Source of the DNA: a virus
Taxonomy: Duplodnaviria; Heunggongvirae; Uroviricota; Caudoviricetes
Length of the DNA stretch: 64,000 bases
Virus record (IMG/VR): IMGVR_UViG_2839610755_000002
Reading direction: 5' to 3' (one strand)
Shown: positions 11,788 through 62,626 of the stretch, in pieces
Position numbering within the stretch: position 1 is the stretch's first letter
Layout: each line of letters opens with the position of its first letter
Position numbers and translations under genes: made by a program
Notes under the pieces: model-generated
The model's input: the letters and a program-made list of their open reading frames with translations, nothing else
What the model was told of the DNA's origin: nothing
The model's database searches: none

Positions 11788-12429
11788 TTAAAGATAATTA
11801 TCTTTACCAGTTAATGAACCTTTAGGCACTTTCCGCGCGGCAATTTCATGAGTAGCTTGAATTATATTCACTAGGGGACTTAGTAACGACGTATCCTGAT
11901 TGGCCTCAACTTCTCCAGCCATTGCCCTGATGTAGTCGGCGCTGGCAACGTTGTTGTATTCCGTCGCAAAGCAACATAGTAACGTCAGAACATGTTCTGT
12001 CGTTATTTCGCTCCAGTTGATGTTGAAAAATTCATCGCCTTTTTTATCGTGTTCGGAATCGAAGATGCTTTTGTGAAGGATGTATTTGCCGGATTCCTTG
12101 CGCGGTAACTTGATTGCTTTCTGGCGTTCCAGCTCCTTATAAATCTGCATTGCCTCAATTAGTACCGGCCTGCTGTTCATGAAGGGATCGCGCAACCTTA
12201 CACGCTGGCCAACTCGACCAGTAATAAAGCTGTTTTCCTCTTCCACCAGCACGATAAAACCCTTTTCCTCTTTTTCTCGCAATTCGCGCAGCAGCTGGAG
12301 TTCCATATCGCGGCGGCGTTCAGGGTAGCTGGTCCGCTCAGCCATTATCAGCTCGTTATTGATCCATGCAGCAGTCATTGACGCCGGTTTGCCGACGCTC
12401 ATCGAAACAACGCATATTTTCTTATCCAT
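11788..12429 (-). CDS. Mat-like protein (position of P1 mat)
   Basis: Track ORF 11788..12576; start moved to internal ATG (MDKKICVV) preceded by AGGGGG. Confidence 0.4.
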   Translation of the reverse strand: MDKKICVVSMSVGKPASMTAAWINNELIMAERTSYPERRRDMELQLLRELREKEEKGFIVLVEEENSFITGRVGQRVRLRDPFMNSRPVLIEAMQIYKELERQKAIKLPRKESGKYILHKSIFDSEHDKKGDEFFNINWSEITTEHVLTLLCCFATEYNNVASADYIRAMAGEVEANQDTSLLSPLVNIIQATHEIAARKVPKGSLTGKDNYL

Positions 12430-12618
12430 AGCGCCCCCTACAAAAAAGAAAAGCCACCAGCGGCGGCTTAGCAATACAACTGAAGGTAGCGCCCGGTACT
12501 CAGACTGTGCCGTCCATGGAATATTTGAAAAGGGATCCATCCGTACCGGGCGTGTGATGATTCTGACTGAAGTCACTTGTCAGTTGTCAATCATTTATCA
12601 TTAAAAATAATATATTTA

Positions 12619-13179
12619 TTAGTGCATGATGTTTGCCATCTCATAGGCGTCAGCCAGTAACTCCATCTCTGACTTGTTCAGCAGGGTGAATTCTTTCTTG
12701 CCTCCAACCACACCATCGGCATGAACAGGGACCAGCCAGGGGTATTTTGCTCTTACTTCAGCCGGTGCTGCATGCTGGTGGTGCCATCTACAAAGTGGCA
12801 ATTGCTTTTTATGACAACCCGGCGCGGTACGACCGGCGATATGGTGCAGAGACACCTCATTAGATATTACTCCATGCATATAGCAGGCAATGCAGGGGAG
12901 AGCGCCAAGAGCATTGGCGATGCGCCGTTCCTCCGCCGTTGGTGTTCTCCCCTTCAAGCCACGAGATTTTATTTTTACCGCGCTTTTCCGCGTTTTGCTA
13001 GCTGGTGGGCGCTCTTTCTGTTTAGCGATACGGCGGTCGATAGTATCCCGCATTTTCTGATATTGAAATTCTCGCCAGACCGGATCAGCCAACTTCTCCC
13101 GTTGCCGAGCGATCGCTCGTTCTCTGGCTGCCTTCTGCCACTTGCGGCACTGTTCAATTTTTTGTTCGATTGTTTTCAT
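12619..13179 (-). CDS. ref: Ref, HNH-type recombination enhancement endonuclease
   Basis: 186 aa with Cys/His-rich HNH-like core (CIACYMH...HH...CRWHH); size and position match P1 Ref (recalled). Confidence 0.8.
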   Translation of the reverse strand: MKTIEQKIEQCRKWQKAARERAIARQREKLADPVWREFQYQKMRDTIDRRIAKQKERPPASKTRKSAVKIKSRGLKGRTPTAEERRIANALGALPCIACYMHGVISNEVSLHHIAGRTAPGCHKKQLPLCRWHHQHAAPAEVRAKYPWLVPVHADGVVGGKKEFTLLNKSEMELLADAYEMANIMH

Positions 13180-13278
13180 ATGGTCAAAAAAAAGGCGGCC
13201 TAATGGCCGCCAATGATGTCAAGGAGTGAAGTAATGGCAACGTCTTCGTAGTTGACAAAAACTGCGGCTCAATTATAT

Positions 13279-56872: not shown

Positions 56873-57157
56873 GTGGCAAGCATTGCAACAAAAGACAGCA
56901 TTTGTTCGGGGCACGGAGGATTCCCATCCAGGCCTCCTGTAGAGAGTGAACCACTACTTAAAGTCAACGGAGTCGAAGTGTTAGTTGATGGTAAGCAATA
57001 TGCACAGCATACCGATGGAAACAGTACGCACGGTGGGCAAGCTATATCAACCAGGGCATGGTTTACCGTCAATGGTAAAGGGATCGTATGCGTTGGTGAC
57101 CCTGTTTCATGCGGATCTACCGTAGCGTCCGGAGACGGCCTGGTTCAGGTAAGTTAG
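56873..57157 (+). CDS. PAAR-like repeat protein
   Basis: ICSGHGG, STHGG and CVGDPVSCGSTV motifs typical of PAAR-type spike-tip proteins; start codon uncertain. Confidence 0.45.
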   Translation: MASIATKDSICSGHGGFPSRPPVESEPLLKVNGVEVLVDGKQYAQHTDGNSTHGGQAISTRAWFTVNGKGIVCVGDPVSCGSTVASGDGLVQVS

Positions 57158-57165
57158 GAGATATC

Positions 57166-57954
57166 ATGCTGGAAAAAGACTACCAGTTATCCGCATATAA
57201 AAAATTGGCCGCCGCCGGTGGGATGAAAACACCTGGTGCCATAACATCGGCACGAAACAGTGCTAACACAGCAAAACTGCTTGCAGAAGAATTGACCGGA
57301 TTAATTCTGGATACAATTGTCTATCCCGACACTATTACCAGCTATGTTTCAACGATCAGAACAACCACAACCGGCTTAACGAACATTGGAGAACTGGCAA
57401 CTAAGCACGCGGACCTGTTGGCTGGTTATGCAGATCTGTCAATGCTGCTTCAACTCGATATTGGTTGGGATGTTTACTGCCGTGCTAATGAGCGAGAAGT
57501 TTCAGAACTGCCGATCTCTATTGCCATTGGTGATGTGAATATTACTAAATCGCTTGAGGACGCTGTTAACGCGCTTAATACATCAAGTTTAGTCGCTGCA
57601 ATGGGGGAGATTAACCAGGCCCTTAACACTGGCTCAGAAAGCTCGTCAGGCTCTGGTTCAGGCGGCGGCACTGCCACTCCCCCACCAGCACTAACAGAAG
57701 AGCAAATTGAATCTCTGAAAGTAGCAACTGAACAGTTTGGGGTTGTTTTCAACCAGACAACAGCACCCACAACTGCGTTACAACAGCAGTATGAACGAGC
57801 GAATGAAAGCGCCAACGTAGCCATAACTGCTTATAACCATGCTATCGGTACCGCGCTTGCGGAAGCATCAGCAAATAAGGCCAGCACAGCCAGCGCAGTC
57901 GCCGCTTTGGTTCCTGATTCTGTTCTTGATGAATTAAACAAAGCGGCACGGTAA
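57166..57954 (+). CDS. hypothetical protein with Ser/Gly-rich linker
   Basis: Internal start MLEKDYQL preceded by AGGAG; track ORF 57109..57954. Confidence 0.4.
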   Translation: MLEKDYQLSAYKKLAAAGGMKTPGAITSARNSANTAKLLAEELTGLILDTIVYPDTITSYVSTIRTTTTGLTNIGELATKHADLLAGYADLSMLLQLDIGWDVYCRANEREVSELPISIAIGDVNITKSLEDAVNALNTSSLVAAMGEINQALNTGSESSSGSGSGGGTATPPPALTEEQIESLKVATEQFGVVFNQTTAPTTALQQQYERANESANVAITAYNHAIGTALAEASANKASTASAVAALVPDSVLDELNKAAR

Positions 57955-57993
57955 CAAAGGACTTCATTGATAATTTTTCTTCAGGAGGAAGAC

Positions 57994-58154
57994 ATGTCAT
58001 TCTTTTCTACGTTAAAAACAGCTTTGTCTTTGAAGGAGAAACTTGCTGCTACTGGTGTTCTTGTTCTGATTTGCGCACTTGTTGGTGCTGGGTTTGCATG
58101 GGAACGTCATCAGCTAAAGCAAGCCATGGAGAAAATTGGCAGTCTTGATCAGGC
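57994..58154 (+). pseudogene. 5' fragment of a transmembrane/coiled-coil gene interrupted by IS copy 2
   Basis: MSFFSTLKTALSLKEKLAATGVLVLICALVGAGFAW... with AGGAGG upstream; the frame runs into the IS. The same frame resumes after the IS (about 59468-59654). Confidence 0.45.
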
Positions 58155-58196
58155 TGAACCGCCCCGGGTTTCCTGGAGAGTGTTTTATCTGTGAAC

Positions 58197-59087
58197 TCAG
58201 GCTGCCAGATCATCGTTTCCGATGGAAGCATAATAAGCTTTTTCTGCTTCTGCCGGAGGAGTATGGCCCAGCCTTCCCAGCAATCGTCGATTGTTATACC
58301 AGTCCACCCACGTTAGTGTGGCCAGTTCCACTTCTGCACGGTTTTTCCAGCTCTTACGGTGTATTACCTCCGCTTTGTAAAGACCATTGATGCTCTCAGC
58401 CATCGCGTTGTCATACGAGTCGCCTGTACTCCCTGTTGATGCCAGTAATCCGGCTTCTTTTAGTCGCTCCGTATAGGCCAGTGACACATACTGAGAGCCT
58501 TTATCGCTGTGATGGATGGTGCCAGACGGACGACGGGCCCACAACGCCTGCTCCAGCGCATCCAGCACGAATGTCGTTTCCATAGACGATGAGACCCGCC
58601 ACCCCACGATGTATCCGGCAAACACATCAATGATAAACGCCACATAGACGAAGCCCTGCCATGTGCTGACGTAAGTAAAATCAGCCACCCACAGCTGGTC
58701 AGGTCGTTCTGCCACGAACTGACGGTTTACGCGGTCGCCTGCGGCAACGGCTTTCCGGCTGATGGTCGTACGGACCTTTTTACCCCGGAGAACACCGGCA
58801 AGTCCCATAACCGCCATGAGACGTGCCACTGTACATCTGGCCACCCTGATTCCTTCCCGTAACAACTGACGCCAGACTTTACGCACACCGTACACCTGAT
58901 GATTTTCATCGTATACGCGCTGTATCTCTCTCTTCAGCCAGTCGTCGTGCTGCGCACGGGCACTGCGTTTATCCGGATGATGTCGCTGTTGCTGACAATG
59001 GTAATACGTTGACGGGGCAATATGCAGTTCGCTGCATACCGGTCCGACCCCGTACTGCTCACGCAGCTTATCCAGCAGTGGCATCAT
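58197..59087 (-). CDS. IS3-family transposase OrfB
   Basis: Identical to the 41784..42674 protein. Confidence 0.85.
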
Positions 59088-59410
59088 TTTTTCCAGAGGC
59101 GGTCGAACTCCGCCTTCGCAAAATAAGCGGAAGCCTGGCGAAGGATATCGTTACTGCGGCGCAGTTCACGATTTTCACGTTCCAGCTCTTTCAGACGCTG
59201 ACGTTCAGCGCTGGTGAGCCCACCATCACCGCCCCCGGTATCCCGCTCATGCTGGCGAACCCAGACACGCAGAGTCTCCGGCGTACAGCCAATCTTTGGG
59301 GCAATGGAACAAATTGCCGCCCACTGTGAGTCATATTCATCCTGACTTTCCAGAACCATACGAATCGCCCGCTGACGGACTTCGGGGGAAAAACGAGTAT
59401 TTTTAGTCAT
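59084..59410 (-). CDS. IS3-family transposase OrfA
   Basis: Identical to the 41461..41787 protein. Confidence 0.85.
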
Positions 59411-59562
59411 CCTGTTTACCTCTTTCTCAGGGAGTTTAGTCTCCAGGATTTCCGGGGCGGTTCAGGCTGTTAAGGAACGTGATAAGTCAATAATGGATCT
59501 TAACCAGACCATTGAGACGATGAACAAAGCAGAGCAACATTTTCACAGCCAGGAAGTGAAAA

Positions 59563-59895
59563 ATGAATCAGAACAAGCCAAATATGCTGACAGGCAAATG
59601 GAACGAAAAGCTGAAGTTCAGAAACAACTGGTTGCGGCGGGTAATGTTCGCTAGCGCATTCCTGCTGACACTCAGCGGTTGCTCCGGGAGTCGATCAGCG
59701 AATTTAACGCCGACGCCGACAAAGGTTAACCACCCTGCCCCCAAAAGTGCGTTTATGTGCAGGATGCCAGAGTTTAGCAGTGAATATTTTGATGATCTGC
59801 CAGCGTATATCCTCGATACAGAAACGATGCTGATGGGGATTAACAGGAAGAATCGCAACGTTAATGATTACAACCGCGCTATCAGCGGTAACTAA
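59563..59895 (+). CDS. lipoprotein (Mlp-like); likely start at internal Met about 59644
   Basis: MFASAFLLTLSGC lipobox followed by a Pro/Thr-rich segment; overlaps the 3' end of the IS-interrupted upstream gene. Confidence 0.5.
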   Translation: MNQNKPNMLTGKWNEKLKFRNNWLRRVMFASAFLLTLSGCSGSRSANLTPTPTKVNHPAPKSAFMCRMPEFSSEYFDDLPAYILDTETMLMGINRKNRNVNDYNRAISGN

Positions 59896-59906: not shown

Positions 59907-60299
59907 ATGTCTGATAAAGTAACAGTAAAGCAAACTATCAACAAAGCGACTTCAATCTACAAAATTGAGCACATCACTGTTGGCAAGCCAGGATCTGAAC
60001 AATACCGTCATGCTTTCGAGCTTGCCGATCAGCTTGGTTTAAAACACCCGGATTGCATCGAGCATGTATTTCCGACCTATGCTGATGAGCAATGTACTCA
60101 TGTTCTTACCGAAGAGGATTTTTTCAGCACTGAAGAACGAGAAGGCGTTGATCGCTGCATTGGTGTGATTTGCTCTTCAGTGAGTTATGAGTTATTCCCT
60201 AATGTCCATGAAAATGGTGGTATTGGATACCAATTCCTGTACGAAGGCGATGAGCTTAAATGTTATGAACATGGTCTTCTTATCGAAAGCGTAGAATAA
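59907..60299 (+). CDS. hypothetical protein
   Basis: 130-aa ORF followed by a stem-loop and the oriR elements. Confidence 0.4.
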   Translation: MSDKVTVKQTINKATSIYKIEHITVGKPGSEQYRHAFELADQLGLKHPDCIEHVFPTYADEQCTHVLTEEDFFSTEEREGVDRCIGVICSSVSYELFPNVHENGGIGYQFLYEGDELKCYEHGLLIESVE

Positions 60300-61809: not shown

Positions 61810-62145
61810 ATGCAAGAAGAGAAACAACACTACCTCTACGTTCTGGTGCCGGAGAACGGAGATACTTTTAAAATCGGCATTTCATGTGGTCCATTGGCAC
61901 GGTTTAAAGGGCTACAAGTGAGTCCCGATTTTGCGCTTTCACGGGTCTATCGTGGTACGCGTTTGGCAATGGTTAATCTTGAGCGGGCTTTACACGCAAC
62001 CTTTTTCCCCTGGAATGCGCCGTGGGAGAAAAGCGCCGGTGGCGGGCATACTGAATGGTTTACACGAGAGTGTCTTGATAAGGTTTTGGCTCATATCGAA
62101 TATCTAAATGATATGTGGGGAGGGATTCTCGAGCGCATTAAGTAG
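61810..62145 (+). CDS. T5orf172/GIY-YIG-like small protein
   Basis: YLYVLVPENGDTFKIGIS and GGGHTEWF resemble the T5orf172 domain pattern (recalled). Confidence 0.4.
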   Translation: MQEEKQHYLYVLVPENGDTFKIGISCGPLARFKGLQVSPDFALSRVYRGTRLAMVNLERALHATFFPWNAPWEKSAGGGHTEWFTRECLDKVLAHIEYLNDMWGGILERIK

Positions 62146-62214
62146 AATGATTTACTTCAGCGTCCAGTAGATGCTGCTCGCTCTTTCGAAAAAGAACTGG
62201 ATGTTACTTCTATC

Positions 62215-62619
62215 GTGACTTTCAAAGATGACGCAGGAATGAGGGACGTGGCTTATGTCTCCATATCTGGCTATGAACCGGACGCGATCCGCGCTCAATG
62301 TGAATTGCTGAAAGCAATGTTTATGCTTCGGACTAAATATCCCTGGGAGACAGGGCGGGTGTGCTTCCCTATGGAAGAGTTAACCGCCACCATTGATTCT
62401 CAGCTTTACCACGATAATCCAGAGAAGTTTTTTAGCCTTTTAGCCGGTAATGGGCTTAACTGTGTGTCCGGGCTGGGGCGAAGTAGAATCCAACATGCCT
62501 CGCTCTTCGGTCCCTTCTTTTACGATCGACACGGGTACTTTGAGGCTGAACTTCCGGCGCTTACGCGTGCTATAGATACTATCGATTTCGAACGATTATT
62601 CGCTGCTCTTAGCAAATAA
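62215..62619 (+). CDS. hypothetical protein
   Basis: 134-aa ORF followed by a clear intrinsic terminator. Confidence 0.4.
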   Translation: MTFKDDAGMRDVAYVSISGYEPDAIRAQCELLKAMFMLRTKYPWETGRVCFPMEELTATIDSQLYHDNPEKFFSLLAGNGLNCVSGLGRSRIQHASLFGPFFYDRHGYFEAELPALTRAIDTIDFERLFAALSK

Positions 62620-62626
62620 CACTGAT

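Follow-up and report, generated by a model that had tools for sequence, protein, structure and literature searches.

A probable P1-type i-spanin/o-spanin gene pair in a P1-like plasmid prophage, with ppfA carrying both a nonsense mutation and an insertion sequence

In bacteriophage lambda, the Rz/Rz1 spanin pair (PF03245) combines a type II inner-membrane coiled-coil protein with a lipoprotein of the outer membrane whose gene is read in the +1 frame. In bacteriophage P2, the genes of the overlapped pair LysB/LysC follow those for the holin and endolysin within a lysis cassette. A further family of overlapped two-component spanins, the 'P1' family, was described by Summer et al. 2007 and is listed in Table S1 of Kongari et al. 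2018 (PMC6139136), in which P1 gp064 is an overlapped i-spanin of 140 amino acids with a transmembrane domain (TMD), a 104-amino acid periplasmic domain and its sole cysteine within the TMD, and P1 gp063 (mlp) is an overlapped o-spanin. Bednarek et al. 2022 (PMC9025707) likewise refer to 'the spanin genes of P1 ... in yet another unlinked operon', which are ppfA and mlp. The Introduction of that paper swaps the two labels, calling ppfA the o-spanin and mlp the i-spanin, the opposite of both the sequences and the table of Kongari et al. Here, we describe this gene pair in a 64,000-nt stretch of DNA (the window) from IMG/VR virus record IMGVR_UViG_2839610755_000002, in which ppfA is interrupted by an insertion sequence (IS). 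We consider it very likely that the window represents a P1-like plasmid prophage (genus Punavirus) hosted by Escherichia coli O157:H7 or a close relative, that ppfA-mlp is its i-spanin/o-spanin pair, and that ppfA was inactivated in two steps, by a nonsense mutation and then by the IS.

The genes in the window are P1 ppfA and mlp, so the spanin reading of the locus is already known in the literature. A preliminary description of this DNA, made from its letters, had recognised an i-spanin/o-spanin layout in a gene for a membrane-anchored coiled-coil protein that overlaps a lipoprotein gene, and had proposed that the IS-free gene be compared with P1 ppfA/mlp and with spanin catalogues. This comparison identified the same genes, catalogued as an overlapped pair, and the layout agrees with Kongari et al. 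Table S1, with Bednarek et al. 2022 and with matches to PHROGs and to LysC, the function itself being predicted from sequence. Gene order, ribosome-binding site, +1-frame overlap and lipobox are identical to those of P1, whereas the window copy differs in a premature stop at ppfA codon 116 (Q116*), in an IS629/IS1203 element in codon 54 and in two residues of Mlp. Across P1-group phages, PpfA and Mlp of the window show 98-100% protein identity, and reconstructed PpfA shows 99% identity with its P1 counterpart and matches that of several P1-group phages at 100%. The pair also shares its overlapped layout with P2 LysB/LysC, with comparable sizes (140/110 amino acids and a 167-nt overlap for PpfA/Mlp; 141/96 amino acids and a 146-nt overlap for LysB/LysC) and with PHROGs 89 and 456 common to both; in contrast to the P2 pair, ppfA/mlp of P1 have no linkage to lyz and lydAB and are found beside the plasmid replicon. 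The likeness to lambda Rz/Rz1 is one of predicted topology and presumed mechanism. There is no detectable sequence kinship with that pair (Rz belongs to phrog_13 and Rz1 to phrog_3198), Rz1 is wholly embedded in Rz whereas mlp extends past ppfA, and Rz has periplasmic cysteines whereas PpfA has none. The locus comprises the following features, with positions numbered from the first letter of the window:

57983..57988, + strand: Shine-Dalgarno sequence AGGAGG of ppfA, 5 nt 5' of the ATG at 57994
57994..58154, + strand: 5' fragment of ppfA, codons 1-53 and 2 nt of codon 54, covering the N-terminal cytoplasmic stub and the transmembrane segment
58152..58154, no strand: left copy of the GGC target-site duplication
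58155..59464, - strand: IS629/IS1203-type element of the IS3 family, 1310 bp, recognised by its inverted repeats, the GGC duplication, NCBIfam and its identity to annotated copies
59410-59084 (orfA, 108 amino acids) and 59087-58197 (orfB, 296 amino acids), - strand: transposase of the IS at 58155-59464
59465..59467, no strand: right copy of the GGC target-site duplication
59468..59654, + strand: 3' fragment of ppfA, comprising the third base of codon 54, codons 55-115 and the premature stop, and covering the periplasmic helical part
59563..59895, + strand: mlp, intact, 110 amino acids from ATG 59563, with ribosome-binding site AGGAAG; predicted o-spanin, an outer-membrane lipoprotein precursor
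59652..59654, + strand: nonsense mutation CAG to TAG (Q116*), a C to T change at 59652, from a three-way alignment with P1 and phage Ro157c2YLVW
59655..59729, + strand: lost 3' end of ppfA, the last 24 sense codons and the ancestral TAA (59727-59729), which specified the conserved C-terminal helix RIPADTQRLLRESISEFNADA

The open reading frame (ORF) of ppfA starts at ATG 57994, encodes MSFFSTLKTALSLKEKLAATGVLVLICALVGAGFAW... and, as the preliminary description had noted for an ORF with an upstream AGGAGG, reads into the IS; the same ribosome-binding site is recorded in Kongari et al. Table S1. As it stands, the 5' fragment forms a 66-amino acid chimeric ORF that stops within the IS at 58194. 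In silico excision of the IS together with one GGC yields an open frame of 115 codons that ends with TAG at 59652-59654, in accordance with the restored frame of about 115 codons previously proposed; all coordinates in the preliminary description were confirmed. This length is itself a lesion, however, as the gene extends over 140 codons (423 nt) in P1, phage Ro157c2YLVW and approximately 600 E. coli plasmids. The change that creates the stop is synonymous in the mlp frame (GCC to GCT, Ala), and positions 59655-59729 are now untranslated in the ppfA frame. The earlier view that the first partner had been knocked out by the IS is therefore correct in that a real IS lies in codon 54, but it had missed the Q116* stop, which came earlier.

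The order of the two events is provided by a sibling plasmid, pF1273-3 (NZ_CP038378.1; E. coli O157:H7 strain F1273), which is 99.99% identical to the window and collinear with it across its full length (4 mismatches in approximately 61 kb, record positions 30776-92149). The sole structural differences between the two are the two IS copies of the window, both missing from pF1273-3. Both share the internal stop in ppfA; in pF1273-3 the gene is flagged 'internal stop' by the Prokaryotic Genome Annotation Pipeline (PGAP) and lacks the IS. Among 630 E. coli records with ppfA, only pF1273-3 is 100% identical to the ppfA allele of the window. Since pF1273-3 has Q116* without the IS, the nonsense mutation came first and the insertion second. 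In the first step, a C to T change made codon 116 a stop, with loss of the C-terminal helix and no change to mlp, a state preserved in pF1273-3; in the second, IS629/IS1203 entered codon 54, duplicated GGC and parted the membrane anchor from the periplasmic domain. The plasmid is also a true empty-site control, which shows that the insertion in ppfA is real and recent: pF1273-3, Ro157c2YLVW and P1 each have a single GGC at this site. The lineage of pF1273-3 was in decay before both window insertions arrived. Outside the stretch equivalent to the window, the plasmid has an IS3-family insertion of its own in another, structural gene (record 11955-13265; 95% identical to the window IS). Its DNA methylase gene is frameshifted (record 34031-40799), and several other pseudogenes are present.

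The inserted element shows every feature expected of the IS629/IS1203 group of the IS3 family: a length of approximately 1.3 kb, inverted repeats (imperfect, beginning TGAACCGCCCCGG), a 3-bp target duplication and an orfA/orfB transposase, of which orfB matches NCBIfam transpos_IS3 at 2.9e-94. It is 100% identical to many copies labelled 'IS3-like element IS1203 family' in O157:H7 and other Shiga toxin-producing E. coli (STEC), whose genomes carry up to 40 or more copies each. Its 1310-bp length, its orfA/orfB with programmed frameshift, its 3-bp duplication and its 100% identity all match IS629/IS1203 disruptions in STEC, from which this case differs in its target site alone. A second copy at 41407-42716 is the exact reverse complement of the first (0 mismatches in 1310 positions) and is also flanked by a GGC duplication. 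This copy sits in P1 tail gene 7, at approximately 64 nt from the end of that gene and shortly ahead of baseplate gene 24, and probably leaves the prophage defective for virion production; the P1-like prophage of the window is thus probably a decaying, non-infective element.

For mlp, the preliminary description had used ATG 59644 (MFASAFLLTLSGC..., stop 59895) as the start of the lipoprotein gene, with an 11-nt overlap with the restored ppfA frame. That overlap is correct for this start and for the Q116* allele, but mlp probably starts upstream of MFASAF, at ATG 59563, where the overlap in the Q116* allele is 92 nt; the ancestral overlap was 86 nt from ATG 59644 or 167 nt from ATG 59563. The short form has no basic n-region, whereas ATG 59563 adds one (...KLKFRNNWLRRV) ahead of the hydrophobic core, giving a 40-amino acid signal, and is the start used in both the P1 annotation and the spanin catalogue. 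Together with the AGGAAG ribosome-binding site, these features make ATG 59563 the better supported start. Further candidates are ATG 59584 and a possible TTG at 59632 giving MRRVMFASAFLLTLSGC, which aligns with the start of P2 LysC. In related plasmids, PGAP often annotates mlp merely as a 141-nt internal ORF or in a 252-nt form. The gene starts inside ppfA in the +1 frame and ends past its stop, which is the 'overlapped' architecture. A lipobox L-S-G-C lies at 59671-59682, with Ser (and not Asp) at position +2 pointing to outer-membrane sorting, and the predicted mature protein is small (71 amino acids), with six prolines and one further cysteine. Mlp therefore has the lipobox with its cysteine, the +2 residue and the small Pro-rich mature form of an o-spanin.

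Intact PpfA, in turn, has the predicted topology of an i-spanin, with one N-terminal TMD, an N-in/C-out orientation and a mainly α-helical periplasmic domain. The transmembrane stretch covers residues ∼17-36 (nt 58042-58101), with a Kyte-Doolittle 19-residue maximum of 2.35 at residue 17, and is preceded by lysines at residues 8, 14 and 16; 36% of the residues in the periplasmic part are charged. An AlphaFold2 model built from a 19-sequence alignment (mean predicted local distance difference test score 70) places a helix at residues 13-111, a break at 112-119 and a second helix at 120-137. The best-conserved segment across homologues of 59-100% identity is residues 115-137, which is also dual-coding with mlp, and this dual coding may add to its conservation.

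Profile searches link both proteins to the P2 pair. PpfA matches phrog_89, 'Rz-like spanin' (1.2e-25, residues 21-139), to which P2 LysB also belongs (5.8e-61), while Mlp matches its own family phrog_30284 (1.9e-56) and, weakly, phrog_456 (1.2e-4), which P2 LysC matches at 1.7e-31. P2 LysC reciprocally matches phrog_30284, and a BLASTP comparison of Mlp with P2 LysC gave 37% identity over 68 amino acids (E = 5e-8) in an alignment that spans the signal peptide, the lipobox, the Pro-rich stretch and one conserved cysteine. The single match of PpfA in an NCBIfam scan was phage_LysB, which was sub-threshold. A tblastn search of 50,697 phage records with PpfA found only P1-group phages and Cronobacter phage JK004 (59%), with no independent genome context, and a search of 5.8 billion proteins found only PpfA orthologues (59-100%) and truncated or fused variants, none with a Pfam domain. 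On the basis of these comparisons, the most fitting description of PpfA/Mlp is that of a remote relative of the P2 LysB/LysC type, outside the lambda Rz/Rz1 family.

By analogy with lambda Rz/Rz1 and P2 LysB/LysC, intact PpfA (140 amino acids) would act as the i-spanin, a type II protein of the inner membrane that has its N-terminus in the cytoplasm, one transmembrane helix and a periplasmic part of approximately 100 residues made of a long helix, a short break and the conserved C-terminal helix. Mlp, encoded in the +1 frame, would be the o-spanin, a small lipoprotein rich in proline and destined for the outer membrane, and the two would form a complex that bridges the periplasm. After degradation of the peptidoglycan by Lyz, the P1 endolysin, this complex would disrupt the two membranes or fuse them as the final step of lysis. 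In the window, mlp is intact yet partnerless, so the element should lack a spanin; mlp is also probably poorly expressed, since it lies 3' of an IS whose transposase genes point the opposite way. Lysis of induced cells would be predicted to stall at a fragile, spherical stage, with bursting only under shear.

A number of observations weigh against the spanin assignment, and several of them speak for PpfA and Mlp as envelope proteins with a non-lysis role (in lysogenic conversion, in exclusion or associated with the plasmid, with expression driven by sigma-70 promoters beside the replicon), whose resemblance to spanins would be merely architectural; we consider this unlikely. Bednarek et al. 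2022 state explicitly that the lysis function of PpfA/Mlp is without experimental verification. In a genome-wide CRISPR interference (CRISPRi) screen, P1 plaqued after knock-down of ppfA (efficiency of plating 1.3 and 1.2) and of mlp (0.24 and 0.19), both of which were scored as non-essential, whereas lambda Rz was scored as essential in the same study. The usual, although not defining, linkage to holin and endolysin genes is missing: as the preliminary description had observed, the pair sits beside the replicon and outside a lysis cassette, between upfB and upfA and adjoining oriR/repA, and in pF1273-3 lyz is approximately 57 kb and the holin genes approximately 67 kb from ppfA/mlp. The P1 annotation shows predicted sigma-70 promoters (P1ppfA and P2ppfA) and no late promoter 5' of ppfA; our own promoter and terminator consensus scan gave a site count no higher than in shuffled sequence. 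Unlike most two-component spanins, PpfA has no periplasmic cysteine. At the level of sequence similarity, PpfA scored 19 bits against the TIGR03495 phage_LysB equivalog, below the cut-off of 92.75, its pairwise comparison with P2 LysB was not significant (BLASTP E = 57, hhalign E = 0.048), and a Pfam scan of PpfA, Mlp and UpfA returned only sub-threshold coiled-coil noise, with no Rz domain. With these pairwise and equivalog failures, the link of PpfA to i-spanins comes from one broad PHROG profile and from topology.

A non-lysis role has difficulty, however, with the homology of Mlp to the P2 o-spanin LysC and the PHROGs that both partners share with LysB/LysC, as well as with a +1-frame overlap between genes of nearly lysB/lysC size, which such a role would hardly explain, and the gene cluster opens with a virion gene, upfC. 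In addition, lysB and lysC are themselves annotated as non-essential in the P2 record, and spanins are dispensable in shaken laboratory culture, where the spanin-less phenotype is visible only under non-shearing conditions (Bednarek et al. 2022). The non-essentiality of ppfA/mlp is therefore no argument against a spanin role, and we retain the assignment of the pair as a putative i-spanin and o-spanin.

Two more speculative proposals concern the meaning of the lesions. It is quite improbable that Q116* is a functional snapshot of a transition from 'overlapped' to 'separated' architecture, or that spanin loss has been selected in P1-like plasmids of STEC as a form of domestication. The cases that could be cited for selected loss are the nonsense mutation and IS629 of the window, IS91-family insertions at GAAC in an O111:H8 plasmid, and fused or truncated ORFs in assemblies. 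The destruction of ppfA in that O111:H8 plasmid, p7_55_62A-3 (NZ_CP077509.1, 2540-5056), is an independent event caused by IS91-family elements that entered the gene at GAAC sites (nt 169-172 and 295); nt 173-294 are missing. A public protein collection contains chimeric ORFs (P0021, P0065, P0044, P0067-P0073) that carry the same tails from the IS, joined at several GAAC sites of ppfA. Other variants in Logan and National Center for Biotechnology Information (NCBI) assemblies are 195-amino acid PpfA-Mlp fusion ORFs (P0003, P0039, P0046 and others), which arise from 1-nt deletions, located either within the A5 run where mlp starts (gtgaaaaatg) or just 5' of the ppfA stop, and which may be real alleles or homopolymer sequencing errors.

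These disruptions stand beside 608 of the 630 E. coli records in which ppfA is uninterrupted and a survey of 77 P1-like phage-plasmids (Microbiol Spectr 2022) in which ppfA and mlp are among the 21 most conserved genes, which indicates that disruption is sporadic decay. The double lesion in ppfA is ordinary prophage decay. On the same evidence, the possibility that ppfA is a hot spot for insertion sequences was rejected.

A narrower version of the first proposal, in which the Q116* allele still specified a working spanin as a transitional form and the IS was the only inactivating event, is highly improbable. A premise of this version that also weighs on our reading is the description by Kongari et al. 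2018 of i-spanin families that naturally lack the overlap-encoded C-terminal part: in three spanin families, the members with separated architecture lack this C-terminus or diverge in it, and an 8-bp overlap was counted as 'separated'. Given such families, we infer, rather than observe, that Q116* alone was inactivating. The silence of the mutation in mlp would also suit a working allele. Against this, the lost residues 116-140 form the most conserved PpfA segment and a predicted discrete helix, the allele occurs in 1 of 630 E. coli records and is treated by PGAP as a pseudogene, and the pF1273-3 lineage shows further decay, in that one of its structural genes is interrupted by an IS and several other genes are frameshifted. 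Finally, an assembly artefact, by repeat collapse or mis-join at a multicopy IS, has a negligible probability even though the exact junction is absent from the 5,426 complete E. coli genomes and PLSDB plasmids searched and the chimeric or truncated ppfA-IS ORFs of the window from the gene catalogue, because a mis-join would not create target duplications, whereas here the 1310-bp IS is complete with both inverted repeats and a perfect 3-bp duplication of a triplet that is single in the empty site, and the second copy is duplicated in the same way.

What is added here to the literature is the additional lesion in ppfA, the order in which the two lesions arose, the sibling pF1273-3 and the link to LysB/LysC, all of them useful for annotation and unsurprising. 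Automatic pipelines mostly name ppfA and mlp 'hypothetical protein' and often mis-start mlp; we suggest labelling the window genes as a ppfA i-spanin pseudogene and an mlp o-spanin, which has little importance past correct annotation. The marks of decay are relevant if this P1-like plasmid is wanted as a transducing or inducible phage. As a naturally occurring ppfA-null element it could serve, together with pF1273-3, which has Q116* but no IS in ppfA, as ready material for probing the P1 spanin assignment.

The surroundings of the locus are those of P1. The flanks of the IS share 94-100% identity with P1, P7 and further Punavirus genomes, in which the matching region is annotated as ppfA and upfB, and the order upfC-upfB-ppfA-mlp-upfA-oriR-repA in the window matches P1. 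The neighbouring genes of the cluster are:

56873..57157, + strand: upfC, first gene of the cluster, a PAAR-motif protein resembling the T4 gp5.4 spike tip (Pfam PAAR_motif 8.5e-06, phrog_281 2e-30, P1 annotation)
57109..57954, + strand: upfB, directly 5' of ppfA (phrog_1559 1.6e-137, P1 annotation)
59907..60299, + strand: upfA, last gene of the cluster, followed by oriR and repA (phrog_1453 2.4e-61, P1 annotation)

UpfC has been described as a T4 gp5.4-like spike-tip protein (Gonzales 2022, PMC9024508), so the same-strand cluster that holds the putative spanin genes opens with a virion gene, yet adjoins the plasmid replicon. In the replicon of pF1273-3, repA is annotated as a RepB-family initiator gene and is 885 nt long, compared with 861 nt for P1 repA. 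Between repA and parA, P1 has only the incA iterons, whereas the RefSeq annotation of pF1273-3 shows a GIY-YIG nuclease family gene and a hypothetical gene (89959-90768), which correspond by collinearity to window positions ∼61810-62620.

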